Positions 5,800 through 25,798 of a stretch of DNA of 48,348 nt are shown here, piece after piece. Where the stretch lies: positions 1 to 48,348 of the forward strand of contig JBGQCU010000001.1 in assembly GCA_041495495.1 (NCBI GenBank), read 5' to 3'. Numbering within the stretch: the stretch's first letter is position 1; each line of letters starts with the position of its first letter. Under the pieces are notes generated by a model, which worked only from the letters and a program-made list of their open reading frames with translations, had not been told where the DNA came from and did not search any database. The stretch is from Candidatus Limnocylindria bacterium. Its GTDB lineage: Bacteria > Chloroflexota > Limnocylindria > QHBO01. A program made the translations under genes and the position numbers.

Positions 5800-5861
5800 G
5801 CGGCACTTCAAAGGTGCTCGGCTATACTCGCGGCCGATCCAACCGACCACCTTGATTGTGG

Positions 5862-9415: not shown

Positions 9416-10008
9416 GCCTCGGGCTCGTCGCCGGTCACATACAGCTCCGGCTCGAATCGCGGGCCACGTCCCGGCAGGGACGCGACCCAGTCGCGCAGCG
9501 CGCTCTCGGCGGTGCTAAAGGCCAGCTCGTCCCACGGGATCTCGTCCGGCCCGAAGGCACGCACCTCCGCCGTCTCGACGCCGGGCAGAGCCTCGCCGCC
9601 CACGACAGCGGCCTCATAGATGAGCGTCACCACCCCGGCGTACGGCCGCGAGTAGGCGCCGATCAGGCGACCGACCTCGACCCGCAGCTGCGTCTCCTCC
9701 TCGGTCTCGCGGCGCGCCCCCTCCTGCGCCGCCTCGCCGACCTCCAGGTAGCCACCCGGGTAGGTCCAGCGCCCGGCTCCCGGCTCGATCGAGCGGCGGG
9801 CGAGGTAGACCCGTCCGTCGAGCACCGGCAGGGTGCCAACCACGAGGCGCGGATTGCGCCAGGTGACGTGCCCATCGGGACAGACGAGGCGCGGCCGGTG
9901 GTCCTCCTCGAGGACGCGCTGCACGAGGCCCTTCCCGCACGCCGGGCAGTAGGCCGGTTCCTCGCCAAGGGTCAGCGGATAGCCCTCTCCCACGTCGTGT
10001 TGCGGCAT
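9412..10008 (-). CDS. NUDIX hydrolase with N-terminal zinc ribbon
   Basis: Start at ATG 10008 (MPQHDVGEGY...). Zinc ribbon CPACG...CPDGH. NUDIX box GGYLEVGEAAQEGARRETEEETQL. A TAGCAT box lies 7 nt upstream of the ATG (plus coordinates 10016-10021). Confidence 0.8.
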   Translation of the reverse strand: MPQHDVGEGYPLTLGEEPAYCPACGKGLVQRVLEEDHRPRLVCPDGHVTWRNPRLVVGTLPVLDGRVYLARRSIEPGAGRWTYPGGYLEVGEAAQEGARRETEEETQLRVEVGRLIGAYSRPYAGVVTLIYEAAVVGGEALPGVETAEVRAFGPDEIPWDELAFSTAESALRDWVASLPGRGPRFEPELYVTGDEPEA

Positions 10009-10037
10009 GCCCCGAATGCTAGACCGGCAATGGCAGA

Positions 10038-11882
10038 ATGCGCAGACTCGTGACCGCTGCAGCAACCGTCCTGCCCACCCAGCCATCGCCCTACGCCGTC
10101 CTGCGCAACCGGTCCTTCCGGCGCATCTGGACAGCCCAGCTGGTCTCGACCATCGGTGACGCGCTCACCAGCCTGGCGGCCGGGATCATCGTCCTCGAGC
10201 GGACTCATTCGGTCCTGAGCGTGGGGCTGATGCTGATGGCCACCGCCGTGCCGACGCTCGTGGTGGGCCTGATCGCCGGAGTCGTGGTCGACCGCTACGA
10301 CCGCAAGAAGATCATGGTCGCCTCCGACATCATCCGCGCCGGGTTGGTGGCGACCCTCCCCTTCCTGGTGCACCAGAGCGTGGTCTGGCTGTATGTCATC
10401 GTGATGCTGTCGTCGTCGGTGACCCAGTTCTTCTCGCCGGCCAACGAGAGCGTCCTGCCCGAGATCGCCTCCGAGGAGGAGCTCGGCGCGGCAAACGCGA
10501 TCATGGCCATCGCCCAGTTCGGATCGACGGCGGTCGGATTCGCCGCGGCGGGCTTCCTGGCGCAGACCAAGTCGATCGAGCTGGTCTTCTTCATCGACTC
10601 CGCCACCTTCCTCTTCTCGGCGCTCATGATCAGCCTGGTAAGGATCGCACCGCTCGAGGTGACCGAGCACACCACCCTGGGCGAGCAGATCCGCAACATC
10701 GGGTTCGGCGCCAAGTTCATCTGGAAGACCCCCGTCCTGCGCAGCCTGAACATCGTGCGGGTGCCGGTCCTGATCGCGTTCGGCATGCAGAACGTGCTGC
10801 TGCTGCCGTTTGCCCTCCAGGTGCTGAAGGCCGATGACGTCCAGTACGGGCTGCAGGAGGGACTCACCTCGGTCGGCTTCGTGATCGGCAGCCTGGCCAT
10901 GGCCCGCCTCGCTGACCGATTGCGCGAGGGCCAATGGCTCTTCCTCTCGTTCATCGCCATGGGCCTGATGGGCCTCGCCTACTCCCTGCAATCGATGGTC
11001 TGGGTAGCGATCGCGCTGATCGCCATCTCGGGGGTGATGAACGCGCCCTCGTTCGTGGCCGGGCGCCTGATCAACCAGCGCAACACCCCGCGTGAGGCGC
11101 GCGGTCGAGTCTTCTCCACCTCGTACGTGCTCCGCGACGTGGTCTACCTGACCGGCATGGGGCTCGCGGGCCTGGCGGATCTGTTCGACGTGAGGATCCT
11201 GTTCGTCCTCAGCTCGCTGGTGGTCATCGGGGCCGGCCTGATCTGCGCGGTCCTGCCCGGCCTTGGCCTGCCCGCCGCGGAGTGGCGCCGCTCGATCAGC
11301 CTGCTGCGCGGCGCGGCCACCGCCCCGGGCCTGGCGATCGGTCGCTCGCCGACCGTCGCGGACCTGGTGTCGCTGGGCAGCTACCTGCCGGCGCTCTCCG
11401 GCCTGACCCCGCGCGACCGCGACGCCATCGTCTCGCGCGGGCGCATCCGCGAGGCGGCCACCGGGACCGCGGTGATGCGCGTCGGTGACAAGGGTGAGGC
11501 GGCCTACTTCGTGCTCGGCGGCAAGCTGGTGGCCGGCACGGCGACGGAGGGCGGCCCGCGCCGGACGCTCTCCACCATGGGCCCCGGCGAGATCTTCGGG
11601 GAGATCGCCACCCTCACCGGCAGCACGCGGACCGCCGACGTGGTGGCCGAGGAGCCGTCGACCCTGCTGGAGATCCCCGCCGACGTGCTGCGCCAGCTGA
11701 TGGCCGCCCCCCAGTTCGGGCAGCTGGTGCTCAGCAAGATGAACGAACGCCTGACCCGCTCCGCCTCGCTGGGCGACCTCCCGCGCTTCGGCGGCCAGGA
11801 CCGCGCCACGCTGCGCAGGCTGCGTCGCGAGGCGGCCGCGGGAAGCACCGTCGCCTCGTCCGAGGCGCCCGTCCAGGCCTAG
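10038..11882 (+). CDS. MFS transporter fused to a C-terminal cyclic-nucleotide-binding domain
   Basis: 614 aa. The first ~420 aa have 12 predicted TM helices (MFS_3/EntS-like, with DRYDRKKIM after TM2). The C-terminal ~150 aa are a cNMP-binding fold with the phosphate-binding cassette FGEIATLTGSTRTADVVA. Confidence 0.75.
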   Translation: MRRLVTAAATVLPTQPSPYAVLRNRSFRRIWTAQLVSTIGDALTSLAAGIIVLERTHSVLSVGLMLMATAVPTLVVGLIAGVVVDRYDRKKIMVASDIIRAGLVATLPFLVHQSVVWLYVIVMLSSSVTQFFSPANESVLPEIASEEELGAANAIMAIAQFGSTAVGFAAAGFLAQTKSIELVFFIDSATFLFSALMISLVRIAPLEVTEHTTLGEQIRNIGFGAKFIWKTPVLRSLNIVRVPVLIAFGMQNVLLLPFALQVLKADDVQYGLQEGLTSVGFVIGSLAMARLADRLREGQWLFLSFIAMGLMGLAYSLQSMVWVAIALIAISGVMNAPSFVAGRLINQRNTPREARGRVFSTSYVLRDVVYLTGMGLAGLADLFDVRILFVLSSLVVIGAGLICAVLPGLGLPAAEWRRSISLLRGAATAPGLAIGRSPTVADLVSLGSYLPALSGLTPRDRDAIVSRGRIREAATGTAVMRVGDKGEAAYFVLGGKLVAGTATEGGPRRTLSTMGPGEIFGEIATLTGSTRTADVVAEEPSTLLEIPADVLRQLMAAPQFGQLVLSKMNERLTRSASLGDLPRFGGQDRATLRRLRREAAAGSTVASSEAPVQA

Positions 11883-14669: not shown

Positions 14670-16106
14670 CTAGCGGCCGTTTGTGTGCAGCAGGTCAAGG
14701 TAGGCGCCAAATCCGCTCGCGGTCGCCCACTCGGTCGCCGACTCGACCGATGTGCCCTCGCCCCACTCATTGAAGGTGGTGATCAGCTGGAAGGGTGCTC
14801 CGCTGGCGACCATGTCCTGGACGTTCTGCGCCCAGCGCGCCAGGTCACGCGCAAGCCGAGCGGACGCCTCATTTGCCTTGTTGAAACCGGGGCTGATGGC
14901 GTAGCTGTAGCCGACCTGCGCATCCGCGGCCTTGGCGGGCGCGTACTGATGCCAGCCGGCCGGCTGCGCCGCGCAGGTCTTGAATCCCGAGAACACCTTG
15001 AGCACCACGTAGGCATCGATGCCTACGTTGGCCTGGCTCCAGCGAGTCGCCATGGCGCACGCATCCGCTCCATCGGTGTAGACGAACACGACGAATCGCC
15101 CATTGACCTTGAAGAAGCTCGGATCGACGGCGTAATGGTCGCGAATGTATCGCAGGTCGCTCGCGATCTGGGACACGGCCGGGTCGCCCTGGGCCTCCTG
15201 CTCGTAATAGAGGCTCCAGCGGAAGCTGCTCCCCGCCGTATTGGCCAGGATGGTGGGGACCCGCACGTCCGATCGCGTCCCCACGCCCCACCACGACGAG
15301 ATGCCGACCTTGATACCGCCGTACTGCATCGCCTGGATGTGCTGCCGGATCGTGGCCGAGGCGGACGAGTCGTAGAACCCGAGCGACGGATGGTAGTGCG
15401 TGAAAGGATTCATCCCCTGCTGGTTCCATGCCTCCGGGAACCACGGATAGTAGAAGGCGGCCCGAACCGGGAGGGAAGGTTGGGAGCTGGACGGCAACGG
15501 CTTTGGTGTGGGCACGGGCGTCGATGTGGGCGGAGCGGGCGTCACTGCCGGGCCCTCCGTCCCGGACGCTGATGCCGAGGCCGATGGACCGCCAGGCACC
15601 GAGGTGGCCAACATCGTGGAGGAAGGGCCGGCTTCGCCCGACGTGGCCGGGCTGGAGCTGGCCGCATTGGTCGGGGAGGCGGACTGATTGGACGGCGAGG
15701 GCTGCAGCGCCACCACCAGCAGCCCCGCCGACGCGAGCACCGCCGCGGCGAGCCCAGCCCTGCCCAGAAGGTTCGGGCGGCTCACCGCTGCCATGGCGGC
15801 GACCCGATGCGTGCCGGGAAGAGCGCTGGCGGGTACCGACACCACGATGGAGAAGCCCCCCGCCCCATCGGCTCGCGCCCCTCCGAGCTGCTCTGACTCA
15901 TCAAAGACAATCGCGACCTCCTGTCCCGAGGAGAATCCGGTACCCGTGATACCGACCTCCGCCCCGGCCGGCACCTCCGCCGCTGACAGGTTGATGAGCG
16001 CGCCCAGGGCCCGAACGCCAGGCTCCGGCGCGATGATCGCCAGGGTAAGCAGCAGGATGACACCGGTTGCGATGAGACCGCGAAGCCCACGCCGGGCCGT
16101 GCGCAT
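14670..16106 (-). CDS. Membrane-anchored IPT/Ig-like + Ser/Thr/Pro-linker + GH99-like glycoside hydrolase domain protein
   Basis: Start chosen at ATG 16106 (MRTARRGLRGLIATGVILLL...); ATG 16178 and 16265 are possible but add only Pro/Ala/Arg-rich sequence. IPT-like segment VPAGAEVGITGTGFSSGQEVAIVFD. Long S/T/P/A linker. The C-terminal domain carries AFYYPWF, LGFYDSS...IRQHI...GIKVGISSWW and TFNEWGEGTSVE, which parallel the GH99 motifs (FYY.WY, LG.YSS.D, SW, SFNEWHEGTQIE). Confidence 0.6.
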   Translation of the reverse strand: MRTARRGLRGLIATGVILLLTLAIIAPEPGVRALGALINLSAAEVPAGAEVGITGTGFSSGQEVAIVFDESEQLGGARADGAGGFSIVVSVPASALPGTHRVAAMAAVSRPNLLGRAGLAAAVLASAGLLVVALQPSPSNQSASPTNAASSSPATSGEAGPSSTMLATSVPGGPSASASASGTEGPAVTPAPPTSTPVPTPKPLPSSSQPSLPVRAAFYYPWFPEAWNQQGMNPFTHYHPSLGFYDSSASATIRQHIQAMQYGGIKVGISSWWGVGTRSDVRVPTILANTAGSSFRWSLYYEQEAQGDPAVSQIASDLRYIRDHYAVDPSFFKVNGRFVVFVYTDGADACAMATRWSQANVGIDAYVVLKVFSGFKTCAAQPAGWHQYAPAKAADAQVGYSYAISPGFNKANEASARLARDLARWAQNVQDMVASGAPFQLITTFNEWGEGTSVESATEWATASGFGAYLDLLHTNGR

Positions 16107-16443
16107 CGGCGCCGTGGCCTGCGTGGTGGACGGCGCGGCAGACGCGCGATGGGTCGGGGCCAGTGCATTCGGACGCATCCCACTCCTCGCGGCTGGCCTG
16201 GGGCCCGGATCGCTTTCTGTCTCCGGGCGCGGGCGAGGAGCGTACGCGGCAGATACGCGCCGCACGAGAGGCGCTTTCCTCCCACGATCGGGCTAGGAGA
16301 TCCGTACCGCCGGGACCTCGCCGGGCCGCCGCTCCCGCGCAGGTCGCAGGTGGCCTCGAGCCCGATCGTGATCGCTCCCCTGGCCCCACCTGGCCCTGAT
16401 CGGCCTTTCGGCGCGCAGCCGTCACATGCAAAGATGAACGGCG

Positions 16444-17127
16444 ATGTCGACGGACCCAACGGTTGAGCCCGGCACTCCACGGCGCCTCCCCCCTCCCCAG
16501 CGCCTGGTGATGAACGGTGTGACAGTTGTGCTCGTCCTGGTTGCCTGGCTCTTTTCCAGCGCTCCGCCACTGCCCGCAATCCAGACCCCGGAGCCATCGG
16601 CCAGCGTCGCTGCGCCCACCGTCACGCCGCAACCGACTGCGACGGTGCCAACCCAGGCCCTGACGTTCCCCGCAGTCGCCGACGCCTACGTCTTCGCCGG
16701 GCGTCCGGACTTGAATTACGGTGGCTCGGTGAAGCTGCGTCTCGACGCGGATCCCGAAACCACGAGCTATGTCAGGTTCTCCGTGTCCGGGATTCATTCG
16801 CAGGTGGTCGGCGTGGCGCTCCGCATTTATGCCCTCTCGAAGCTGAACGCAGGCTTCAGCGTCCAGGCTGCTGCAGCCGATTGGACCGAATCCGGAATCA
16901 CCTACGGCAACCGCCCGGGTGCGGGCGGCCCCGTCCTCGGCAGTTCCGGGCTGATCCCGGGCGAGTCGTGGGTCACCGTCCAGCTCGGGCCCGCAATTCA
17001 CGGCGACGGCGAGTACAGCTTCGTCCTGTCCACCACCGGCACCGGGCTGGCAATGGCCAGCCGCGAAGCCGGAGCTGCCACGGCGCTCATGCTGATCGTG
17101 CAGGTGGCGATCGGCCCAGGCGGTTGA
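16444..17127 (+). CDS. N-terminally anchored DNRLRE-domain (CBM96-like) protein
   Basis: 227 aa. TM anchor VMNGVTVVLVLVAWLF, then a Pro/Thr linker. The pattern ADAYVFAGRPDLNYGGSVKLRLD...SYVRFSV...VVGVALRIYA...WTESGITYGNRP is typical of DNRLRE domains. Confidence 0.6.
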   Translation: MSTDPTVEPGTPRRLPPPQRLVMNGVTVVLVLVAWLFSSAPPLPAIQTPEPSASVAAPTVTPQPTATVPTQALTFPAVADAYVFAGRPDLNYGGSVKLRLDADPETTSYVRFSVSGIHSQVVGVALRIYALSKLNAGFSVQAAAADWTESGITYGNRPGAGGPVLGSSGLIPGESWVTVQLGPAIHGDGEYSFVLSTTGTGLAMASREAGAATALMLIVQVAIGPGG

Positions 17128-17172
17128 TCGCAGCGTCCCACCGGCCGGCACGTGGTGGTGATGTTCAGCTCC

Positions 17173-18321
17173 TCATGGCGCGCGCCGGGCCCGGCGGGCC
17201 CGGCGGGCCAGCACGACCGGGGTGGCCGCGAGCGTCGCGATGAGCAGCGCCAGCGCGATGAGGCGCCCGGCATCCGACCCCGCCGGTGGAGTCGCGCTGG
17301 CTGGCGACTCGTCCCCGGTCGAGCCGAGCAGATCGACCGTCGGCGGCGGCAGGTGATGGATGTCGCTCAGCACCTGGAGATAGCGATCTCCGTACGAATG
17401 ACTGGGCTCGACCTGCGATTCCTCGCTGAATTCGTTCCAGCTGATGAGACCCACCGCATCCGGCCCGGATTGGACAGCGGCGGCCACCTCTCGTCGCAGC
17501 GTGCCTCCATCATTCCGATCGACAACGGCCACGCCACCGAGCAGCGTGCCGTTGAAGCCCGGCGCGGCCGGCGCGATCCACAGCCCACCTGTGGCGTGGA
17601 CCGAGGCGGCCATCTCGTCGAGCTTGCCCTGGTAGTCGGGATACGTTTCGGGATTGACGGATGACCAGTAGTACGCGTCGCCGTCGACGAGGTGTTGAAC
17701 GCGCTGGTAGCCCTTGACATTCTTCTCGGATGCAAGGATCAGCAGATCCTGACGCAGGTTGGCCGTCACGGAGTCCACTTCGACCTCCGAGTATGCCCAG
17801 GTGCCCGAGAAGATCACGAGGGGCTTCTCAAAGATTCGGAAGACCGGGTTCCGGGCGTAGTGCTCCTGGAAATAGCGCAGATCGGCCGCGACCCGGGCGG
17901 GCGACTGCGGGCGACGAAAGAAGTCGAGTCCCTGGTAGATGATCGCGAGCGTGAAATCTTCCTCGGTCGCCACCTGGATCAGCATCTCGAGGCGACGATC
18001 GAGCGTTGGGGTGCTCTTCCAGCTCACGATGAACCCGGTGATTCCTGCCGCTTTGGCCCAGCGGATGTGCTGCCGCATGACGACGGGGTCATCGCTGGAG
18101 TAGGGCCCGAGCGCCGGAACGTCGCGCTTCGCCCGGTCCCACGAGGTTCGGTCGAACCAGATGTAGTAGTACGCAAGAAACGGGACCGGGTCGCTCGCCG
18201 CTCGTGCAACGGGCCGGCTCAGCGGTGCGAGCCCTGGTATGCCCTGAACCGCTGATACCGATCCCAGGGCCGTCATGAGCACCACCGCGATTGCGGTTGG
18301 CAGTGCTCGTCGCCGGCTCAC
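17173..18321 (-). CDS. GH99-like glycoside hydrolase, signal peptide + C-terminal TM tail anchor
   Basis: The GTG start at 18321 overlaps the stop of the upstream LysM gene (GTGA). Signal-like N-terminus VSRRRALPTAIAVVLMTALGSVSAVQG. Motifs YYYIWF, LGPYSSDDPVVMRQHIRWAKAAGITGFIVSW and SWNEFSEESQVE. The C-terminus is ...SATPPAGSDAGRLIALALLIATLAATPVVLARRARRARRAP. Confidence 0.6.
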   Translation of the reverse strand: MSRRRALPTAIAVVLMTALGSVSAVQGIPGLAPLSRPVARAASDPVPFLAYYYIWFDRTSWDRAKRDVPALGPYSSDDPVVMRQHIRWAKAAGITGFIVSWKSTPTLDRRLEMLIQVATEEDFTLAIIYQGLDFFRRPQSPARVAADLRYFQEHYARNPVFRIFEKPLVIFSGTWAYSEVEVDSVTANLRQDLLILASEKNVKGYQRVQHLVDGDAYYWSSVNPETYPDYQGKLDEMAASVHATGGLWIAPAAPGFNGTLLGGVAVVDRNDGGTLRREVAAAVQSGPDAVGLISWNEFSEESQVEPSHSYGDRYLQVLSDIHHLPPPTVDLLGSTGDESPASATPPAGSDAGRLIALALLIATLAATPVVLARRARRARRAP

Positions 18322-20297
18322 CGGATCCTCAGCCGCGTGCCGGGCAGAATCCGGTCCGGATCGAAGACGACATCCCCGTTCGCATGCAGGATCTCCGGCC
18401 ACGCGTTCTCGTCGCCGAGCATCGTCGCCGCGATGGACCGCAGCGTATCGCCGGCGCGGACGACGTAGACCCTGGGCACGCGGATCGGCTCAGCCCTGGG
18501 AACGCGGATCGCCTGAGCCGCGGGAACCTTGGTCGCCTTATCCCTCCGAACCCGGGTCGCCTGAGCCCTGGGAACGCGGATCGCCTGAGCCGCGGGAACC
18601 TTGGTCGCCTTATCCATAGGAGCCTCGGGCGCCTCAGGCCTGCGAACCCGGGTCGCCTGAGCCCTGGGAACGCGGATCGCCTGAGCCGCGGGAACCTTGG
18701 TCGCCTTATCCATAGGAGCCTCGGGCGCATCGGCCCCTTGAACCCGGGTCGCCTGAGCCCTGGGAGCGCGGATCGCCTGAGCCGCGGGAACCTTGGTCGC
18801 CTTATCCGTAGGAGCCTCGGGCGCCTCAGGCCTGCGAACCCGGGTCGCCTGAGCCCTGGGAACGCGCGGCGCCTTGACGGCACCCGATGATTCCGCGCTT
18901 GGCGCTACCGGTGTCGGGACGTGGGCCACCCGTGTCTGGGCTGACCCGGGCGGGAAGATGCCGGATGCCATGGTGCGGACGACGCGTGGGCCCCTCGCGA
19001 CAGCCCCGACCAGCTCCGCCGTCCGGTTGACTGCGGCCGTCGCCACCGGAGCGCCTCGTCTCCAAGCGATGCCGCGCAGCGCCTGACCCATCCCGGGCCG
19101 GCCCGCGAGCATGAGGCCAAGAACGACGATAAGGAGCAGACCCGTGGCCACCCCGATGTCCAGGTAGCTGATGAACTTCAGCTCGACCTGCTGGTCACGG
19201 GAGAGGGCAACCGGCCACGAGAACGAGATACCCCAGCCCTGGGCGACGACTCGATAGTCGCCGCGAGCCAAGGCCGTCAAGGTCAACTCTCCATCCTTCG
19301 CCGGCATGCCGACCACGCGTCCGTCGGGATAGGTGACGGCCACATTGGTGTCAATCGGGAAGCCGAAGAGAGCGTCGCGCACGGAGATATGGGCCGAGTA
19401 GAAGAGAAGCGTGATGGTCCAGACGCGCTGCGTGCTCGGCGTGAAGCGCTGCTGGGCAACATGGATCACGCTTGCGCCGTCGACCACCACATCCTCCGCG
19501 GCGTAGGTGACTTCCTTCGCCTGGAGCTCGCCGGCGAGCGGAACCACTCGCTGGCCGAGAACCGTGAAGGGGCTGTCGGCCGGAACACTCATCTGGCTGC
19601 CGATGGCGCTCTTGAGGTCCACCTTCGTCACCCGACCAGGGTCGACCGGATGGCCGGCCAGGTCCACGAACGCGAGGCGGATCTGGTAGTACATCTCGTA
19701 CGTGGCGTAGATATCCCCGTTGTGGGTCCTCCACCGCGCGAATCGCTCCTCCACGCCGGGCGCGACCTGCTTGTCCGCCGCCTGGGGGCGCAAAGACGCG
19801 TCAAACGTGGGGGAGACCTGAACGCGAGCTACTCCATCGGCATCGGACACGAACACCGTGCCATTGAGGTTGAAGGACAGCCCTGGGTTCGATGGCACAG
19901 TTCGAATCGTGAAGAGACGCGGCTGCACGGTCAGGGTCCCGCCTGCCTGTGAGGGCAGCAATGTCGTCGTGCCGTTGAAGGTCACCTGGAAGTAGTACGT
20001 ACCAGGATTGACCGGTGTCTTCAGATCGAAGGTCGCTGTCCCGGCTGCGTCGGTGCGGCCGCCCGCGACATCCCCGGCGATGTGGAGATCGACGTGACGG
20101 TCGCCAAGAGGGGCCCCGCTCTGCAGCCTCAGATGGGCAGTCACCGTGGCACGGTCGCCCCAGACCACCGGCGCCGGCCGCTCAACGGTAAGCACGGTGG
20201 GGTCCTTGACCGCCCCGCGCGCCGGAGACGCCATCAGCGCGACAGCCAGAGCCATCAGCGCCATGGATCGCATTCGGCGCATGGATGTGCGTCTCAC
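18318..20297 (-). CDS. Signal peptide + beta-rich (Ig-like) ectodomain + single TM + basic tandem-repeat region + C-terminal LysM domain protein
   Basis: 659 aa. The GTG start at 20297 overlaps the phosphoesterase stop (GTGA). Signal sequence MALMALAVALMASPARG. TM helix ISYLDIGVATGLLLIVVLGLMLAG, followed by RPGMGQALRGIAWRRG. 32-aa repeats DKATKVPAAQAIRVPRAQATRVRRPEAPEAPM. LysM domain YVVRAGDTLRSIAATMLGDENAWPEILHANGDVVFDPDRILPGTRLRI. Confidence 0.75.
   Translation of the reverse strand: MRRTSMRRMRSMALMALAVALMASPARGAVKDPTVLTVERPAPVVWGDRATVTAHLRLQSGAPLGDRHVDLHIAGDVAGGRTDAAGTATFDLKTPVNPGTYYFQVTFNGTTTLLPSQAGGTLTVQPRLFTIRTVPSNPGLSFNLNGTVFVSDADGVARVQVSPTFDASLRPQAADKQVAPGVEERFARWRTHNGDIYATYEMYYQIRLAFVDLAGHPVDPGRVTKVDLKSAIGSQMSVPADSPFTVLGQRVVPLAGELQAKEVTYAAEDVVVDGASVIHVAQQRFTPSTQRVWTITLLFYSAHISVRDALFGFPIDTNVAVTYPDGRVVGMPAKDGELTLTALARGDYRVVAQGWGISFSWPVALSRDQQVELKFISYLDIGVATGLLLIVVLGLMLAGRPGMGQALRGIAWRRGAPVATAAVNRTAELVGAVARGPRVVRTMASGIFPPGSAQTRVAHVPTPVAPSAESSGAVKAPRVPRAQATRVRRPEAPEAPTDKATKVPAAQAIRAPRAQATRVQGADAPEAPMDKATKVPAAQAIRVPRAQATRVRRPEAPEAPMDKATKVPAAQAIRVPRAQATRVRRDKATKVPAAQAIRVPRAEPIRVPRVYVVRAGDTLRSIAATMLGDENAWPEILHANGDVVFDPDRILPGTRLRIR
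18472..18870. repeat. In-frame tandem repeat: one 72-bp unit, three 96-bp units and a partial unit, inside the LysM-protein gene
   Basis: The core gccctgggaacgcggatcgcctgagccgcgggaaccttggtcgccttatcc recurs starting at 18493, 18565, 18661, 18757 and, partially, 18853. Spacings are 72, 96, 96 and 96 bp, and copies are nearly identical. The repeat creates long artefactual ORFs in several frames on both strands. Confidence 0.9.
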
Positions 20298-21658
20298 GTT
20301 CGGCTCCTGAACGCGCGACTCCAGGTCACGGCCCGCGCGACGAGGCCCGGGCCGGTCGCCACCAGCAGCAGCCCGAGCGCGAGGACGATCGCCGCTGCAT
20401 ATGCGGCGTACAGCACAGCGCGATTCGGCTCGACGGGCGGGGGCGTGGCGAGGCTCGCAGACAGGAATGCGGGCGGCCGCGGCGGCCGAGTGAAGTCGAA
20501 CGCGGAAGCGATGCTGGTGGCGGCCGCATCGCGAGCCGCCAACGGAGGCAATCCCCAGTTCGTTTCGATGAACTTCATGACCGAGGTGTAGTCGAGCGTG
20601 GTGGAATTGACCTGGCCCTGGCGCGCGTAGGCGCTGACGAGCAGCGCGGGGACCCGGAACCCGTAGCCGTAGGTGTCAACCTGCGGCGGCGAGACGTGGT
20701 CATACCACCCGCCCCAGTCGTCATAGGCCCACATGAAGGCCGAGGTGTCCCAGTAGTCAGATCGGGTGAGGGCGTTGACGATGGTCTGGACCAGACGCTG
20801 CCCCGCCTGAATGCTGCCCGGCGGGTGCTCGCTTGAGCCGAGTGGGGCCATGTAGGCCACCGTCGGCAGCGTCCCGTTGCGGAGGTCGGTGTAGTACTGC
20901 TCCATGTCGACGATGTGGCTGAACAGGTACGGGTTGTCGAGGAAGCGGTTGAAGTCGAGCAATGGGACGAACACCGCCTGCGCCGCCTTGTCTCCCGCGT
21001 TCTGCAGCGTTCGATAGTTGATGGTGGGGTCGTAGTTCTGGACGTAGAACTTCCAGGAGATCCCTGCCGACTCGAGCCGATCGAAGATGGTCAACAGGTC
21101 GCCGAAGCCCGTCGTCGGGGGAGAGTCGTGATTCGGGTCACCCGGGGTGGCGGTGATCCAGTACATGTGGTTCATGAAGCTCCCGGCGGCCGCCGAGCTG
21201 AAGAACCGATCGAACAGCACGTACCGGTTCGCCACGTTCCAGTAATAGGGGAGGTCGCGGGCGTCGTAGTACCCCATCGTCAGGCGAGCAATCTGCTCCG
21301 CGTTCAAGCCGCCTGCCGCGATGTGGGCCGAGACGAACCCGTCCATCTTCCCATTGAGGTACTGGCCGACAAAGGTCTCCCGGTTGTGGAGCAGGTCGCT
21401 GATCGGCTGACTGCCAAGGTGGAACGGCTTGACACAACCGAGGCTGGGCTTGGTGGGATCGATCGGCATGCAGGTGCCGGGCGGGAGGCCATCGGCATTG
21501 GGGTAGGTACCGAAGTAGTTGTCGAACGAGTGGTTCTCCTGCAGGAGAAACAGGAAGTGCTTGATCGGGGTCTGCGTCGGCGGGTCGGCGGCAATCGCCT
21601 GGCCGGGGACCAGGATCGTGAAGAGCAGGGCGAGGACGGCGCAGGCTCGCGTGATCAC
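20294..21658 (-). CDS. Phosphoesterase family protein (phospholipase C / acid phosphatase AcpA type), secreted with C-terminal TM tail anchor
   Basis: 454 aa. The GTG start overlaps the GT-C stop (GTGA). Signal sequence MITRACAVLALLFTILVPGQAIA. The hallmark FLLQENHSFDNYFGTYP is present. The C-terminus is ...LATPPPVEPNRAVLYAAYAAAIVLALGLLLVATGPGLVARAVTWSRAFRSRT. Confidence 0.75.
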   Translation of the reverse strand: MITRACAVLALLFTILVPGQAIAADPPTQTPIKHFLFLLQENHSFDNYFGTYPNADGLPPGTCMPIDPTKPSLGCVKPFHLGSQPISDLLHNRETFVGQYLNGKMDGFVSAHIAAGGLNAEQIARLTMGYYDARDLPYYWNVANRYVLFDRFFSSAAAGSFMNHMYWITATPGDPNHDSPPTTGFGDLLTIFDRLESAGISWKFYVQNYDPTINYRTLQNAGDKAAQAVFVPLLDFNRFLDNPYLFSHIVDMEQYYTDLRNGTLPTVAYMAPLGSSEHPPGSIQAGQRLVQTIVNALTRSDYWDTSAFMWAYDDWGGWYDHVSPPQVDTYGYGFRVPALLVSAYARQGQVNSTTLDYTSVMKFIETNWGLPPLAARDAAATSIASAFDFTRPPRPPAFLSASLATPPPVEPNRAVLYAAYAAAIVLALGLLLVATGPGLVARAVTWSRAFRSRT

Positions 21659-23397
21659 GGACGCACCTCGTAGATCACGATGACCGGCGATTCGACATTG
21701 ACCCCGGATGCCGACGGTATCGTCACGGTCTCGGTGTGCACCGCCCGACCGTGGTAGCGGCGGACGTACTCGAGCAGCTTGCTTGCGAAGAAGCCGGAAC
21801 GGGAGGCGGAGAACGAGTCCCAGACGACGTATTGCAGCTCGTTGTTGCGGATCAGGAGATCCGGGTTCTTCAGCGGGTCATAGGACGGGTTGCGCTGAAG
21901 GGGGTTCGGGCTCACCGACAGTCCCGACGCGGACCGATGTCCGTAGAACTGCAGGATGTTGGCCATGGAAGGACCGATGGTCATCAGGTGAGAGCCGGCC
22001 GGGGTGTTGGCGTCGACCCATGCTCCCGCCTCGCGTCCACCTGGCACCCCACCCGATCCGGCGAGGAACGTACCCGAGGCGGACGGCGATACGATGGCGA
22101 GGGTCGGCACGGCCACCGATATGAGGACAGCCGCCACGGCCAATGGCCTGAGCCAGGACAGGTTGACAGCCCAACCGATCGGCGTTGCGACCCAGCCTGG
22201 GCGGAACTCGGTGAGTGCCCTCGCGGCCAACAGGGCCACCGGCGGGGCAATCGGCAGCAGGTACTGAAAGCCCTTGACCGGCCACAGCTGGAAGAACGCA
22301 ATCGGGACCACCACCCAGGACGCAAGGAGGACGTCCTGCCATCCGCGCCTGCGACGCAGAAAGACGAGGCCGGCAATCGCAACGGCCACCACCAGCAGGC
22401 CGATGGACGGTGTCACGACAGTGGCGTAGAAGATCCAGTCGTGGTTTGGCCGGCGGAACAGCTCCCAGACCAGATACTGGCGCGTCCGCTCCGCGCCGCC
22501 GCCCCCTGCCAGCACCAGGGACATGGGAAACGGAGCGATCACCACGAGCATCGCCCCTGTCGCAATCACAAGGTCGCGGATGCGGACGCGGATGTCCTGC
22601 CGCAGAGCGAGGAAGGTGTAGACCGCGCCGAGAAGAACGATGCCGGTCTCCTTGGCAAGGAAGGTGAGGCCCATGGCCCCACCCGCGGCGTACAGCCAGG
22701 ATGCTCTCTGGGTGGTCGCGAACTTGGCTGTCAGGTACAGGGTCAGCGTGGCCAGGAAGGTCATCGGGCCATCCAGCAACACCTGGCGCGACACGACCAC
22801 GTGGTATGGCATCAACGCCAGGATCGCGGCGGCAATCAGGCCCGCGGCATGCCCGTACATGAGACGGCCCAGGAAATACGCCAGGTAGACGGTGGCGAGG
22901 CCGATGACGACGGCAAGCAGCCTGCCGGTCAGGTCGCTCACGCCATAGTGGTAGACGATCGCCAGGACGAACTGGAACAGCAGCGGATGGGCTCTGAACA
23001 CCGGGAAGATCTGCGACAGGGTCGGGTCCTGGGCGATGGCCGCCGCCTGACCGGAGTAGACCGCCTCGTCGGTGTTATAGCCCAGGGCGTTCAGCGACCA
23101 GATGCGCACGACGGTTGCCACGGCCAGAATCACCACCAGCGGGAGCCATGTCACCAACGTGGTAGCGATCGCGCGTGCCAGTGCCAGGGCTCGCTCCCCG
23201 ATCTGGGGAGACCAGATCCTCACGGCGCCGATCCGCGTCGATCGGACGGTGGCGAGCGACATGCGGCGGGCGTGCGCGACCGCGGCAGGGGGGTCCTGTG
23301 GCAGGCGGGACCGCAAGGCGCCGAAACGCAACGCGCTAGGCAGGTTCCGGCTGATCGCCTGCCACCAGACCTTGCCGGTCCTGGCGGGCGGCTGCAT
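21655..23397 (-). CDS. GT-C fold glycosyltransferase (PMT_2 / ArnT-like, GT39/GT83-type)
   Basis: 580 aa and polytopic. The first extracytoplasmic loop carries GYNTDEAVYSGQA (DE motif). A soluble domain follows the last TM helix. ATG 23397 lies only 5 nt after the stop of the upstream gene. Confidence 0.7.
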   Translation of the reverse strand: MQPPARTGKVWWQAISRNLPSALRFGALRSRLPQDPPAAVAHARRMSLATVRSTRIGAVRIWSPQIGERALALARAIATTLVTWLPLVVILAVATVVRIWSLNALGYNTDEAVYSGQAAAIAQDPTLSQIFPVFRAHPLLFQFVLAIVYHYGVSDLTGRLLAVVIGLATVYLAYFLGRLMYGHAAGLIAAAILALMPYHVVVSRQVLLDGPMTFLATLTLYLTAKFATTQRASWLYAAGGAMGLTFLAKETGIVLLGAVYTFLALRQDIRVRIRDLVIATGAMLVVIAPFPMSLVLAGGGGAERTRQYLVWELFRRPNHDWIFYATVVTPSIGLLVVAVAIAGLVFLRRRRGWQDVLLASWVVVPIAFFQLWPVKGFQYLLPIAPPVALLAARALTEFRPGWVATPIGWAVNLSWLRPLAVAAVLISVAVPTLAIVSPSASGTFLAGSGGVPGGREAGAWVDANTPAGSHLMTIGPSMANILQFYGHRSASGLSVSPNPLQRNPSYDPLKNPDLLIRNNELQYVVWDSFSASRSGFFASKLLEYVRRYHGRAVHTETVTIPSASGVNVESPVIVIYEVRP

Positions 23398-23402
23398 CTC
23401 GA

Positions 23403-25082
23403 CTAGACCACTTCCTTGGCGACCGCGCCCGCATCCGTGCGAGAGTCATCCTCGACGGCCGCCTCAATGGGGAGCGCGACCAGCCGATTCTTGCGGGACC
23501 GAGCTTCGATGAGCCCGGGCAGCACCTCTGCCCACTCATGACCCGGCACTCGAAGCCTCCAGATCCTCGCATCGGTGAGGGAGGCAGCAAGGATCTCCCT
23601 CTCGGTGCGACGGAGCGTCGGGTAGTCGTCCCCGCCGATGCGGAGATGCGGCGCGAAGGTGGCGAACGGCGGGAAGCCGTATGCGTCGTCGGTGTTGTCG
23701 ATCAGCTGATCGATGGCGTCCTCCGCGCTGATCTCCTCGCGAAATGCCTCACCTCGTTCGAGCAGGAAGACATGTCGGATGGGAGCCTCGCCGCCGACCT
23801 CGCAATCGAACAGGCTGTTGATGTGGTACTTCGGGGGCGGAACGAGCCACTGCACCACCGAGTTGATCGACATGATCGGGATGTTGAACCTGCCCAGCCG
23901 CTGGCCCACGCTCCGACCGGTCTTGGAGTGCAGGCGGCTCTGAATCGCGAGTGCCGCGCGTTGGCGCCGAGTGAGGTCCTGACCCGCGATCGCCGACATC
24001 GTGTGATAGCTCAGGGTCATCGGCTTCGGGTACGAGATGGCACGGCCATCTGCGCTGATGATGGTCATGTCGTCGCTCAGGAACCGATAGCCGCGTTCCC
24101 GCACCAGCCGGATGACCGTGCTGGTCTTGCCGGTGTCCGTGAGCGCCGAGAGCAGGACCGCATGCTCGCCGGCAGCCAGCGACGCGGAGTGCAGCAGGAC
24201 ATAGCCCTTCGAGACGAGCAGGAACCGCAGGAACGCCTCGATGATGTTCGTGTACAGGACGTGCGGGGACCGCGCCAGCAGGCGGTTCACCGAGATGACG
24301 ACCGGTGAACCCATCTGGATCCGGAAGTTTGCGCCGGCGGCGCCGAGCTGCTCTCGGTAGTGCAGACGATCACCCTCGGCCACGAAGCGGGTGCGAAGGG
24401 TCGGGAGGCTGCCGGTCCTGTTGATCACGATCCGCAGATCGGGCTCGGCGAGGTCATCGGTTCGGAAGAAGCCCAGCTCTCGCAGCTGCACGGCCGACTC
24501 CACCGCGAGAATGCCGGCGATGTCGTAGCGGTAGGTCTTCGCCCGCAAAGGACGCGGCCCGGGCTGGTGCGGTCTCGCCGGCCATGCGCGCTTCGAGGGC
24601 GTTCCAGCCCCGTCGAGGGGATAGGCGGTCGCTGGATCGAGTGCCGCGTCGGTCAGGGTCGGCTCGCTCCAGATCATGTTGCGTGCGATGAGGAAACGGA
24701 ACATGAACAGGCCGCCGAGGGTTGCCAGGTTGGACCAGAAAGCGGACGCGCCCAGGGTGTCGATCAGCAACCAGAGGGCCGGGATGCGCGCCAGCAGAGT
24801 GAGGTTGTTCACGAGGATGAACGAGAGAAACCGGCGCGACGCGGCCTGACTGCCGTCTCCGGCATCAAAGACCCAGCGCTCAACCCAGTAGAAGTTCCAG
24901 ATGCTCGAGCCCTGGGTAGCGACGATGGCGGCCAGGGCGTAGGGCGATCCGGCCAGATCCACGAGTGCGCTGAAGAGCAGCTGGTTGACGATGATGCCGC
25001 TCAGGCCAACCAGGCCGAAGCGGACGAACTGGGCCGTCAGGAAACGAGACGGGCCAAGCCGAGCAGATGTGGAAGATGCCAA
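23403..25082 (-). CDS. GtrA-like 4-TM domain fused to an HprK-like P-loop kinase domain
   Basis: 559 aa. The TTG start at 25082 is preceded by GAGGGA at a 6-nt spacing. The N-terminal ~140 aa are GtrA-like (FVRFGLVGLSGIIVNQLLF...WNFYWVERWVF...). The segment LLHSASLAAGEHAVLLSALTDTGKTSTVIRLVRERGYRFLSDDMTII aligns by eye with the HPr kinase C-terminal core [45 protein letters not shown]. Confidence 0.65.
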   Translation of the reverse strand: MASSTSARLGPSRFLTAQFVRFGLVGLSGIIVNQLLFSALVDLAGSPYALAAIVATQGSSIWNFYWVERWVFDAGDGSQAASRRFLSFILVNNLTLLARIPALWLLIDTLGASAFWSNLATLGGLFMFRFLIARNMIWSEPTLTDAALDPATAYPLDGAGTPSKRAWPARPHQPGPRPLRAKTYRYDIAGILAVESAVQLRELGFFRTDDLAEPDLRIVINRTGSLPTLRTRFVAEGDRLHYREQLGAAGANFRIQMGSPVVISVNRLLARSPHVLYTNIIEAFLRFLLVSKGYVLLHSASLAAGEHAVLLSALTDTGKTSTVIRLVRERGYRFLSDDMTIISADGRAISYPKPMTLSYHTMSAIAGQDLTRRQRAALAIQSRLHSKTGRSVGQRLGRFNIPIMSINSVVQWLVPPPKYHINSLFDCEVGGEAPIRHVFLLERGEAFREEISAEDAIDQLIDNTDDAYGFPPFATFAPHLRIGGDDYPTLRRTEREILAASLTDARIWRLRVPGHEWAEVLPGLIEARSRKNRLVALPIEAAVEDDSRTDAGAVAKEVV

Positions 25083-25222
25083 TATGAATCCCTCGACGCA
25101 TGGGCAACGATGAGTCCGGATTCGTACTCAGGTAACCAAGGACGGCCACGAATTGAGCTGTCCGTTGAGGACGTGTCTCGCAGCGTTGGCCGTCACACGT
25201 GGTCGCCTGAGCCCGTTCCCTG

Positions 25223-25251: not shown

Positions 25252-25372
25252 GGACCCGATGGGTCGGGGGGGCCGTAAGTCGTTGATACTGTTGCACTTT
25301 GTCAACAGGCAGGGGCATGATCCCCATCTCTCGTTAACCTTCGGTGCATGTTGAGTTGGGTAGGATTGGGTC

Positions 25373-25564
25373 ATGGAAGCAGCGAAGCCTCAGCCGCCTG
25401 ACCCACAACAGGGTCTTGCGAGCCTTCCGTGCAGCGTATGCGGCCAGCCGACCACGGGCTGGATCTACTACTCCACGACGGACGATGACGGCAACGACGT
25501 GGTCGAGGGGTTCTCGGCCTGCGCTGCCCACCTCCCACAGAACGTCGAGTCGGAGGCGAGCTAG
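25373..25564 (+). CDS. Small Cys-containing protein (63 aa), possible zinc-finger; hypothetical
   Basis: ATG preceded by TAGGA at a 7-nt spacing. Potential ligand set CSVC...C..H (C20, C23, C50, H53). Third-position GC is high in most codons. No family recognised. Confidence 0.4.
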   Translation: MEAAKPQPPDPQQGLASLPCSVCGQPTTGWIYYSTTDDDGNDVVEGFSACAAHLPQNVESEAS

Positions 25565-25567
25565 CCG

Positions 25568-25798
25568 CTACGAAGCTGAACGCGTGCGACCAGGGCGGAT
25601 CGACAGGCCCGGCCGCAGTCGCAGGCGCAGCACCATCAGCAGTGCCTCGCCCACGATGGCACCACTCATCTTCGACGACCCGGCCATGCGTTCGCGGAAG
25701 GTGATCGGAACCTCACGGATCCTCGCTCCCGAGCGATGGGCGCGCCACGTCATCTCGATCTGAAACCCGTACCCGGATCGATCCGGCTTGAATTGCGG
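25568..25798 (-). pseudogene. 3' remnant of a polyprenol-phosphate-mannose/glucose synthase (GT2, Ppm1/DPM1/GtrB-like) gene
   Basis: The translation [55 protein letters not shown] matches only the C-terminal ~55 aa of the catalytic domain (pattern GY.FQ.E...RA...G..I.EVPI.F.ER..G.SKMS). The expected ~170 N-terminal residues are absent. The upstream part of this frame overlaps another gene and reads as Arg/Pro-rich noise, and there is no start codon at the point where homology begins. Confidence 0.65.

Follow-up and report, generated by a model that had tools for sequence, protein, structure and literature searches.

What is a kinase-like domain doing on the same polypeptide as a GtrA-type membrane module? 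The question is raised by a gene in the window (the whole 48,348-nucleotide stretch of Candidatus Limnocylindria DNA analyzed here), whose product consists of a four-helix membrane module, a linker and a soluble domain of about 350 residues, hereafter the X domain. Two unsettled questions are touched by this domain, namely how proteins of the GtrA family work and how a charged, correctly oriented pool of polyprenyl-phosphate carrier is maintained.

Gene Structure and Distribution

The fusion is encoded on the minus strand, a detail absent from the preliminary description of this locus, as a single intact open reading frame of 559 codons that runs from TTG (25082-25080) to TAG (23405-23403) and comprises the three parts that had been described (Table 1). 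No possible start lies between the upstream stop and the TTG codon, which yields an N-terminus comparable in length to those of homologs; both this codon and the putative Shine-Dalgarno-like GAGGGA, 6 nt further 5′, can be read in the sequence as had been proposed. The 290-nt leader 5′ of the gene contains neither an Rfam match nor a sigma-70-like promoter. That an assembly error or frameshift has joined two separate genes, a caveat raised with the preliminary description, can be practically discounted: in some lineages GtrA and X are indeed encoded by split genes, but the 100% identical protein is recorded on four contigs, more than 100 full-length homologs share the architecture at 51-71% identity, the match to the closest genome (L004) spans residues 1-558, and GtrA and X are fused in one frame at 110 of 163 loci. 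GtrA-X is a genuine, widely conserved bacterial gene.

The proposed database search for this architecture and its companion genes placed relatives in 368 GTDB species representatives and brought out a recurrent glycosylation cassette; the 80 listed among these are mostly soil Chloroflexota and Actinomycetota. The X domain itself is matched by 1,428 representatives after clustering at 50% identity (E ≤ 0.001). Relatives take the form GtrA-X, GT2-GtrA-X, GtrA-X-GT-C, GT2-GtrA-X-GT-C or adjacent split genes, and are publicly annotated as "GtrA family protein" or, wrongly, as "dolichol-phosphate mannosyltransferase." A cultured carrier, Dactylosporangium darangshiense JCM 17441, encodes the GT2-GtrA-X form. 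Where X loci have enough flanking sequence for neighbors to be counted within 6 kb (83 loci, the basis of all such counts below), a GtrA module is present in every case. Likewise, all 15 unfused X frames for which 600 nt or more of upstream sequence is available are preceded by a same-strand GtrA frame, 30-156 nt upstream, and at locus L164 the stop of one split gene overlaps the start of the other. X invariably comes with such a membrane module, in the same chain or an adjacent gene.

Table 1. Features of the GtrA-X locus, in window coordinates.
Feature	Position	Strand	Basis
Second GH99-like protein	14670..16265	-	Pfam Glyco_hydro_99 8.6e-14; syntenic in relatives
GH99/GH71-like membrane-anchored glycoside hydrolase	17173..18402	-	Pfam Glyco_hydro_99 1e-12, GH71 1.5e-9; syntenic in relatives
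Membrane-anchored Ig-like/LysM surface protein	18318..20297	-	Weak Pfam Big_3_5 and LysM; NCBIfam LysM; syntenic in relatives
PF04185 phosphoesterase (PLC/acid-phosphatase family)	20294..21658	-	Pfam E 8e-71
PMT_2-type GT-C glycosyltransferase gene	21655..23397	-	Pfam PMT_2 5.8e-21, PMT 8.6e-11
GtrA-X fusion gene, complete, 559 aa	23403..25082	-	ORF list and sequence
X domain, aa 181-529, predicted two-lobed mini-PEPCK/HprK-superfamily P-loop phosphotransferase fold	23496..24542	-	AF2, Foldseek and HMMs
Asp337-Asp338	24069..24074	-	Aligned to ADD of HprK, GDD of PEPCK
Walker A/P-loop, A313-LTDTGKTS-321	24120..24146	-	Read from sequence
His298 (core His, upstream of Asp-Asp)	24189-24191	-
Pro-rich disordered linker, aa 141-180	24543..24662	-	AF2 pLDDT 35-38
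GtrA/DPMS-type four-helix membrane module, aa 21-138	24669..25022	-	Pfam PF04138, E 2e-18
GAGGGA, putative Shine-Dalgarno-like motif	25089..25094	-	Read from sequence; 6 nt 5′ of TTG
Remnant of GT2 polyprenyl-phosphate hexose transferase gene	25568..25777	-	tblastn and custom HMM

The Membrane Module

The N-terminal four-helix GtrA pattern noted at the outset is borne out by a Pfam GtrA_DPMS_TM match of 67 bits (cut-off 26.1) that covers profile positions 1-117 of 117, and by an AlphaFold2 (AF2) model with four long helices within residues 11-136 (11-43, 48-71, 81-109, and 114-136). When the module was searched by sequence against the PDB, the sole match was the transmembrane domain of the type-III dolichol-phosphate mannose synthase (DPMS) of Pyrococcus furiosus (E 1.1e-6, about 30% identity; PDB 5MLZ, 5MM1, 9EP0). 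The two have a polar pocket in common: N33, N63, F126, and R129 of the window protein align with N248, N277, F338, and R341 of PfDPMS, and among 44 homologs N33, N63, and R129 are each conserved in 44 and F126 in 36. The GtrA protein of phage P22 is without the two pocket asparagines, and by sequence the window module is nearer to the archaeal type-III DPMS domain than to phage GtrA. In PfDPMS this pocket binds the flipped Dol-P-Man head group, with Phe338 serving in gating (PMC12992685). Modules of the GtrA/DPMS type hold, and probably translocate, polyprenyl-phosphate-hexose.

By its definition type-III DPMS was confined to hyperthermophilic archaea, and the polar-pocket transmembrane module was described in 2026 as a trait of that archaeal enzyme (PMC12992685), whereas the hosts of the window-type module are mesophilic bacteria. 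The archaeal enzyme carries, on the same chain, an N-terminal GT2 domain with a DADxQHPP motif and Dol-P-binding residues; the window protein has no GT2 and bears X at its C-terminus, although some relatives, such as the Dactylosporangium protein, likewise have an N-terminal GT2 fused to the module. The earlier remark that GtrA proteins normally stand alone therefore needs qualifying, as they do not always do so and DPMS provides a fused precedent.

The linker that follows is Pro-rich, as first described; it is modeled as disordered (pLDDT <40) and is poorly conserved among homologs. The positive-inside (Arg-rich) N-terminus and the even number of transmembrane helices suggest an N-in/C-in topology, which would place the X domain in the cytoplasm.

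Fold and Catalytic Motifs of the X Domain

The X domain belongs to the PEPCK/HprK superfamily of P-loop phosphotransferases. The preliminary proposal of an HprK/PEPCK-like soluble domain, which profile or structure comparison might have overturned, is upheld along three independent lines: NCBIfam HMMs, hhalign, and Foldseek comparison of two AF2 models. Modeled alone (pLDDT 90.2, pTM 0.87), X returned only PEPCK among its best 50 Foldseek matches to the PDB (probability 1.00, best E 7.5e-7), over about 430 aligned columns at about 10% identity and an rmsd of 7-11 Å, with query TM-scores of 0.41-0.49 for the top 33; this was the Foldseek check originally suggested, and with the full-length model HprK/P is present further down the list than PEPCK. 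The N-lobe of X pairs with PEPCK and not with the HprK N-domain, and the predicted fold is closest to a whole PEPCK rather than to HprK. X is nevertheless about 180 residues shorter than PEPCK, whether ATP- or GTP-dependent, and has no Pfam PEPCK match. In the E. coli enzyme, oxaloacetate/PEP and Mn are bound by R65, Y207, K213, and R333.

At the level of sequence, the matches run to the HprK side. NCBIfam HprK_rel_A (TIGR04352) matches X at E 1e-8, though with 34.7 bits against a cut-off of 200 and over profile positions 94-169 of 280; the matches to HprK_rel_B and ScmC are also below cut-off. Among 31 domain-only relatives, 26 match HprK_rel_A and three match true HPr(Ser) kinase (TIGR00679) at E 8e-5 or weaker, while Pfam Hpr_kinase_C gives a weak, sub-cut-off match in 6 of 75 relatives. 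A Pfam scan of the window protein yielded no match to Hpr_kinase_C (PF07475), and searches of the PDB with X as a single sequence or as a 31-member profile retrieved nothing relevant, so that it is the NCBIfam HMMs, hhalign, and the comparison of folds that link X to HprK and PEPCK. Because X stays below the cut-off of every curated HprK model, it is best described as a superfamily relative and not as an HprK.

The nucleotide-binding core is where the resemblance is greatest. The segment on which the preliminary description had based its HprK alignment, LLHSASLAAGEHAVLLSALTDTGKTSTVIRLVRERGYRFLSDDMTII, is present in the fusion protein and aligns by hhalign with the HprK core of PDB 1ko7 at 94% probability and with one single-residue gap; H298, A313-T320, and D337-D338 all fall on the 1ko7 core. 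The P-loop aligns with GDSGIGKS of HprK and had been called atypical, but A313-LTDT-G318-K319-T320 fits the classic [AG]xxxxGK[ST] pattern. By alignment, Asp337-Asp338 appear equivalent to the catalytic and metal-binding Asp-Asp of HprK and PEPCK, and H232, GTGKT, and GDD of PEPCK all have counterparts in X. All 44 homologs compared keep His298, D316-T320, and D337-D338 unchanged, conservation of these residues across 75 diverse representatives is 90% or higher, and this invariance argues for catalysis; further invariant residues, candidates for lining an acceptor pocket, are K353, H360, R383, H385, R390, K418, N463, D465, D466, H515, and W517; X is, we infer, an active NTP-dependent, or possibly PPi-dependent, phosphotransferase. 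Degenerate P-loops occur in a few relatives, e.g., P0230 and P0212.

The same His, P-loop, and Asp-Asp core, at nearly identical spacing, is found in HPr kinase/phosphorylase and in the HprK-related kinases (TIGR04352, TIGR04355, and ScmC, PF27840, as well as lasso-peptide kinases). HPr kinase/phosphorylase itself acts on Ser46 of HPr and is a hexamer with a MurE/F-like N-terminal domain. Apart from its scores, X differs from this family in having no HprK N-terminal domain, in carrying family-specific motifs (YPKPMT, QSRxHS, PPPKY, and NTDDAYGFPP) that the HprK core segment aligned with it does not share, and in being tied to membrane glycosylation machinery and not to PTS or RiPP genes.

The Gene Neighborhood

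The usual cassette comprises a GT2 glycosyltransferase, GtrA-X, a PMT_2-type GT-C glycosyltransferase, a PF04185 phosphoesterase, and GH99-like proteins, and the neighborhood is a cell-surface glycosylation gene cluster. In most relatives the GT-C gene comes next, and in some it is fused to X; in the window it lies directly downstream, its first possible start 5 nt past the stop of the fusion gene, and encodes about 10 hydrophobic segments. It is found within 6 kb of X at 67 or more of the 83 loci, a lower bound because the custom PMT HMM missed some GT-C genes: it passed over L116, where Pfam assigns PMT_2 and GT87, as well as L060, which has a 9-TM protein without family assignment. Locus L069, where GtrA-X stands among housekeeping genes, looks like a true orphan.

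The phosphoesterase gene, whose start overlaps the GT-C stop, encodes a protein whose hydropathy profile shows a signal peptide and, at the C-terminus, a membrane anchor, and which has sub-cut-off matches to NCBIfam PC_PLC and acid_phos; it occurs within 6 kb of X at 47 of the 83 loci and is absent from about 43%. Purple-acid-phosphatase-like proteins were seen in several cassettes. The gene for the Ig-like/LysM surface protein contains an internal 96-bp tandem repeat. A 416-aa frame at 15901-17151 (minus strand) was treated as spurious, being Arg/Gly-rich, without a family match, and overlapping the GH99-like genes.

No intact GT2 polyprenyl-P-sugar synthase was found adjacent to the fusion in the window, where only a remnant persists: the tblastn match of the L001 GT2 is confined to 25643-25777 and that of the custom HMM to 25580-25774, the upstream gene ends at about 25828, and the ~45-70 C-terminal residues that remain equal residues ~186-230 of a 256-aa relative followed by the C-terminal end of the frame. 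The gene is intact in L001-L004 and lies within 6 kb of X at 44 of the 83 loci; its product most nearly resembles dolichyl- and polyprenyl-phosphate hexose transferases.

This cassette follows the logic of the three-component systems, of the GtrA/GtrB/Gtr type in Shigella and Salmonella phages and CsbB/GtcA/YfhO in Firmicutes, in which a cytoplasmic GT2 makes the polyprenyl-P-sugar and is joined by a small four-helix GtrA-family module and an extracytoplasmic GT-C (PMC7389260). It differs in adding the P-loop phosphotransferase-like domain, fused or adjacent to GtrA, along with the phosphoesterase and GH99-like genes, and, in the window, in having its GT2 reduced to a remnant.

Proposed Role in Lipid Carrier Phosphorylation

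The preliminary description suggested a lipid-linked sugar, the polyprenol carrier, or a partner protein as the possible substrate, and all three are still candidates. The reading we favor, at a probability of roughly 0.3, is that X uses NTP to phosphorylate the polyprenyl carrier on the cytoplasmic side, acting on a lipid that the membrane module would present there. X would phosphorylate free polyprenol to polyprenyl phosphate, priming or recycling the carrier for GT2, which would add a hexose; the membrane module would then flip the polyprenyl-P-hexose, and GT-C would transfer the sugar outside. This reading is preferred on account of the architecture, the fold, the invariant catalytic motifs, the coupling of X to GtrA and its fusions with GT2 and GT-C, together with the resemblance of GT2 to dolichyl- and polyprenyl-phosphate hexose transferases and the PfDPMS-like polar pocket. 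Orphan GtrA-X genes among housekeeping genes, as at L069, fit a general carrier-lipid function, and the PLC/acid-phosphatase-type ectoenzyme could, by inference only, be a source of free polyprenol outside the membrane. A chemical precedent is offered by the lasso peptide pseudomycoidin, for which an HPr-kinase homolog makes a Ser-O-phosphate that a nucleotidyltransferase then glycosylates (PMC8498205); the resulting R-O-P-hexose is the same type of product as polyprenyl-P-hexose.

Several considerations weigh against polyprenol phosphorylation. The kinases known for polyprenol and dolichol are integral to the membrane and have unrelated folds. To our knowledge, all characterized HprK-family kinases act on serine in proteins or peptides and PEPCK acts on a small acid, so a lipid alcohol would be a new substrate. 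A kinase is not obviously needed, since transfer by GT-C releases the carrier as polyprenyl-P; GT2 and the phosphoesterase, given their incomplete co-occurrence, are not obligatory partners; and the similarity to PEPCK (TM <0.5) is modest. Our literature search found no paper on such a phosphorylation step, a link between GtrA and HPr kinase, an HprK-related kinase or SynChlorMet.

An unlikely alternative, if the weightiest of those considered, is that X is an HprK-like regulatory Ser kinase/phosphorylase acting on a protein partner (the linker or membrane module, GT2, GT-C, or another), which would tune the supply of lipid-linked sugar to the energy or metabolite state. Such a role agrees with the aligned HprK core, with sequence-profile matches that are confined to HprK-related kinases and, for three relatives, true HPr(Ser) kinase, and with the Ser phosphorylation of proteins and peptides by characterized HprK homologs (PMC8498205). 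It accords poorly with scores far under the HprK cut-offs, with the absence of recognizable HprK likeness outside the core motifs, and with a best structural match, PEPCK, that is a small-molecule enzyme; moreover, the strict partner of X is a lipid-binding membrane module and not GT2 or GT-C, and no conserved candidate substrate protein was identified. A small divergent CxxC frame was considered as a peptide substrate with a C-terminal Ser, by analogy with the lasso-peptide kinases, and was dropped because its last residue is Ser in the window but Gly at L001.

Somewhat less probable again is phosphorylation of the sugar, in which X would modify the hexose of cytoplasmic polyprenyl-phosphate-hexose, e.g., at C6; flipping and transfer of the phospho-sugar would follow, and its phosphate would afterwards be trimmed or processed by the PF04185 phosphoesterase. 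X is indeed tethered to a module whose pocket binds a hexose-phosphate head group, and the cassettes frequently include a surface-anchored phosphoesterase, several of them also encoding the purple-acid-phosphatase-like proteins. Yet the phosphoesterase is missing from a large share of well-flanked loci, the polar pocket would need to accept an extra charge, and no enzyme of the PEPCK/HprK fold is known to us to phosphorylate a sugar carried on polyprenyl monophosphate.

The obligate one-to-one pairing between a putative flippase module and a P-loop domain, fused or translationally coupled, also invites the rather improbable reading that X is an NTPase that gates or energizes translocation, making the pair an ATP-coupled flippase. 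Enzymes of the PEPCK/HprK fold are known to pass a phosphoryl group to a substrate and not to perform mechanochemical work, and the ~40-residue disordered linker is ill-suited to force transmission. The mechanism of GtrA-type flipping is not established (PMC7389260; PMC12992685), which leaves room for such coupling, but flipping by the related DPMS module has been proposed to be passive (PMC12992685).

Least probable by a wide margin among the functional alternatives is a non-catalytic scaffold or pseudoenzyme that recruits partners. Rv3789 reportedly was proposed to act as an anchor of this kind, and the relatives with degenerate P-loops would suit such a role, but the invariance of the catalytic motifs speaks against it.

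Implications

A kinase-like domain that is always paired with a GtrA module, and sometimes forms one chain with GT2 and GT-C, points to an unrecognized pathway step that is probably ATP-dependent, and its attachment to a lipid-linked-sugar membrane module within a glycosylation cluster suggests an undescribed phosphorylation step in the handling of lipid carriers. The polar-pocket membrane module, for its part, is widespread in mesophilic bacteria, beyond the hyperthermophilic archaeal DPMS, and Dactylosporangium darangshiense JCM 17441, being cultured, puts the function of X within experimental reach. Taken more broadly than polyprenol phosphorylation, and with a likelihood that comes closer to an even chance while still falling short of it, X may represent a new class of lipid-carrier kinases, soluble and of the PEPCK/HprK fold, that have polyprenol or polyprenyl-phosphate-hexose as substrate and dock on a DPMS-type four-helix translocator; with the sometimes-fused GT2 and GT-C, X would constitute a machine coupling ATP to the activation and export of lipid-linked sugar in soil Chloroflexota and Actinomycetota.

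The Fusion Gene and Its Three-Part Protein

The preliminary description had proposed a GtrA-like membrane domain fused to an HprK-like P-loop kinase domain, and this is borne out by a single unbroken ORF encoding 559 aa (see table), with GAGGGA, read from the sequence, six nucleotides 5' of the TTG as the putative ribosome-binding site. The N-terminal four-helix GtrA domain, the Pro-rich linker and the soluble region described earlier are all recovered: residues 21-138 score as GtrA_DPMS_TM in Pfam (67 bits; cut-off 26.1), and the full-length AlphaFold2 model (input 44 homologues, mean pLDDT 80) consists of four long helices (11-136), a disordered Pro-rich linker (141-180) and a confidently folded alpha/beta region (181-529), the ~350-aa soluble domain being referred to here as X. 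The Arg-rich N-terminus and the four helices suggest that X would be cytoplasmic. The fusion is genuine; a sequencing or assembly frameshift joining two genes, raised as a possible refutation, has virtually no standing, as an identical protein (100%) is on record on four contigs and more than 100 homologues among the matches listed (51-71% identity, 90-100% query coverage) share the architecture.

Features of the fusion gene and its surroundings in the window
Feature	Position	Strand	Remarks
GtrA-X fusion gene	23403-25082	-	single uninterrupted 559-aa ORF; TTG start, TAG stop
PMT_2 GT-C glycosyltransferase	5 nt past fusion-gene stop	-	first downstream gene
PF04185 phosphoesterase	downstream of fusion gene	-	signal peptide and C-terminal anchor
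Ig-like/LysM membrane protein	downstream of fusion gene	-	
Two GH99/GH71-like proteins	downstream of fusion gene	-	
96-bp tandem repeat	18470-18866		4.1 copies, 88% matches; within Ig-like/LysM membrane protein gene
Terminator-like GC hairpin, then T-rich tail	25253-25268	-	in leader of ~290 nt; fusion-gene start about 170 nt downstream
63-aa divergent small ORF	25373-25564	+	CxxC...C..H pattern resembling zinc ribbon
GT2 polyprenyl-phosphate hexose transferase remnant	25568-25777	-	residues ~186-230 of 256-aa homologue at related locus L001 align, nothing more

The Membrane Module

The only PDB sequence match of the membrane module is the TM domain of the type-III dolichyl-phosphate mannose synthase of Pyrococcus furiosus (PfDPMS; E 1.1e-6), which is also recovered by Foldseek at 30% identity. 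Residues N33, N63, F126, and R129 align with PfDPMS N248, N277, F338, and R341. Crystallographic work from 2026 shows that these PfDPMS residues make up a polar pocket in which "flipped" Dol-P-Man is bound by its mannosyl-phosphate head group; according to the same work, GtrA proteins lack this pocket, which is limited to hyperthermophilic archaea (PMC12992685). The 44 homologues never vary at N33, N63, and R129, and 36 of them have F126; where these proteins have the two Asn, GtrA of phage P22 carries His and Ser. These shared pocket residues mark the module, at the level of sequence, as DPMS-TM-like; it would work like its PfDPMS counterpart and is predicted, most likely, to bind a polyprenyl-phosphate-hexose head group. 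The neighbors of the family are repeatedly mannose-associated, including PMT_2, GT87, and GH99-like genes (4502-5962 and 9008-10108 of related locus L116; 14670-18402 of the window), and because of these neighbors and the Asn/Asn pocket also found in PfDPMS, which binds Dol-P-Man, the carried sugar may be mannose.

Fold and Conservation of X

The fusion protein matches the NCBIfam models HprK_rel_A (E 1e-8), HprK_rel_B, and ScmC, in each case with a score that falls far short of the curated cut-off. Among 31 domain-only relatives, HprK_rel_A matches 26, ScmC 15, HprK_rel_B 14, and the true HPr(Ser) kinase model three; many homologues carry the precomputed Pfam label PF27840 "ScmC", graded weak or faint. 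Plain sequence searches of X against the PDB found nothing. Profile comparison by hhalign aligns X with the authentic HprK core of PDB 1ko7 at 94% probability, against a weaker 64% for the matching segment of E. coli PEPCK. The core sequence quoted previously is found in the protein, and its proposed residue-for-residue alignment with HprK holds in register (H298, the P-loop, D337-D338) with one single-residue gap. The Walker A motif had been called atypical; A313-L-T-D-T-G-K-T320 in fact conforms to [AG]x4GK[ST].

An AlphaFold2 model of X alone (pLDDT 90.2, pTM 0.87) has ATP- or GTP-dependent PEPCKs as all of its best 50 structural matches in the PDB (best E 7.5e-7). Normalized to X, the TM-score lies at 0.41-0.49 in the best 33 of these and at 0.34-0.44 in the others; the alignments span about 360-480 columns with ~10% identity. 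With the full-length model, HprK/P structures follow the PEPCKs at E ~1e-3. Profiles and models thus support the suggested HprK/PEPCK likeness and place X, on this reading, in the PEPCK/HprK P-loop phosphotransferase superfamily as a compact member with two lobes. X shares a catalytic core with both named families and belongs to neither, since it falls under the curated threshold of every HprK model and lacks the PEPCK sequence signature.

H298, D316-T320, and D337-D338 are invariant in all 44 close homologues, as are the family-specific residues K353, H360, R383, H385, R390, K418, N463, D465-D466, H515, and W517, and across 75 diverse representatives conservation of the core motifs is 90% or higher. 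This pattern indicates that X is a predicted active enzyme with a defined substrate site.

Architectures and Genomic Partners

An exhaustive search with X alone yielded 1,428 cluster representatives (50% identity clustering, E <= 0.001), in which Pfam scans recover stand-alone X, GtrA-X, GT2-GtrA-X (as in a Dactylosporangium protein), GtrA-X-GT-C, and one GT2-GtrA-X-GT-C chain of 1,310 aa. Custom HMMs run on 163 fetched loci assign 110 to GtrA-X, 15 to GT2-GtrA-X, 11 to GtrA-X-GT-C, and 27 to X alone. Every unfused X ORF for which 600 nt or more of upstream sequence is available (15/15) follows a same-strand GtrA ORF 30-156 nt upstream, and at one locus (L164) the GtrA stop and X start overlap. 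Of the 83 loci whose flanks are long enough, all 83 have a GtrA module no more than 6 kb from X; at least 67 have a PMT_2-type GT-C within this distance, 47 a PF04185 phosphoesterase, 44 a GT2, and 40 a GH99-like gene. The membrane module is therefore an obligate partner of X, and glycosylation enzymes are frequent but not universal ones; a second clade includes orphans amid housekeeping genes (L069) as well as members that adjoin PMT_2 and GT87 (L116).

Besides PF04185, the surroundings of the cassette in distant lineages repeatedly contain purple-acid-phosphatase/Metallophos proteins, some of them large with fn3 repeats (L082 16920-19799, L028 11506-16140, L164 3712-4860, L002 21562-21695), a recurrence that hints at a tie of cassette product or regulation to phosphate.

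When one genome per GTDB species was scanned with a pattern, 368 stretches proved to encode relatives; the 80 loci listed are mostly from Chloroflexota (Limnocylindria, Chloroflexia MAGs) and also from Actinomycetota (Jatrophihabitans, Thermoleophilia, Acidimicrobiia, and the cultured Dactylosporangium darangshiense JCM 17441). In public records the proteins go by "GtrA family protein", "putative flippase GtrA", or "dolichol-phosphate mannosyltransferase". One Chloroflexia MAG carries two paralogues ~20 kb apart on contig CAWCXQ010000011.1 (L009, ~412-434 kb; L018, ~432-454 kb), one with the full GT2/GT-C/phosphoesterase cassette and the other with just an Ig-like protein gene and GH99-like neighbors.

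The Locus in the Window

Related loci have the same gene order, preceded by a 256-aa GT2 closest to dolichyl/polyprenyl-phosphate hexose transferases (AglJ, PpgS, ArnC). This GT2 is intact in relatives, including the closest genome (L004); in the window only a C-terminal remnant survives, the gene preceding it stopping at about 25828, which reflects either a real lineage deletion or an assembly problem. The leader hairpin may be what is left of the GT2 gene's terminator, or it may be an attenuator, and the leader has no Rfam match. By tblastn, about 10 related loci (L001-L004, L008, L009, L011, L012, L019, L047) have the 63-aa ORF in the same place and orientation. It has no family match, and as its C-terminal Ser is not conserved, a role as a lasso-type kinase substrate is unlikely. 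The 96-bp repeat translates into a series of KATKVPAAQAIRVPRAQATRVRRPEAPEAP units located between TM segment and LysM domain.

Proposed Function

In the fusion protein, one chain joins a DPMS/GtrA-type lipid-linked-sugar module to a P-loop phosphotransferase fold with intact catalytic motifs; its gene lies in a polyprenyl-phosphate-sugar glycosylation cassette. X would move phosphate from an NTP (or PPi) onto an oxygen nucleophile of a substrate that the TM module offers at the surface of the membrane. The favored, though tentative, reading (a probability of roughly 30%) is that X is a polyprenol kinase supplying polyprenyl-P to the GT2. GT2-GtrA-X fusions would then channel polyprenol phosphorylation and the GT2 step, and a PLC/acid-phosphatase-type ectoenzyme might, speculatively, regenerate free polyprenol outside. 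The nearest chemical precedent is pseudomycoidin, in which phospho-Ser is made by an HPr-kinase homologue and its phosphate is then glycosylated by a nucleotidyltransferase (PMC8498205).

An HprK-style protein Ser kinase or regulator is an unlikely role for X, a domain below every HprK threshold. Phosphorylation of the sugar of the lipid intermediate, which the predicted head-group pocket would present, is rather less probable, and an NTPase gating flipping is doubtful still further down the scale. A pseudoenzyme scaffold, against which the conservation of the core speaks, is highly improbable.

Relation to Known Systems

The cassette would work like the three-component systems CsbB/GtcA/YfhO and GtrABC (PMC7389260) but adds X, an uncharacterized kinase-like module. 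Searches of a full-text library found no paper on GtrA together with HPr kinase, on HprK-related kinase, or on SynChlorMet. The GtrA-X family is common and strictly organized, a cultured host makes the question testable, and the family bears on two open questions: the workings of GtrA-type modules and the management of the carrier lipid.
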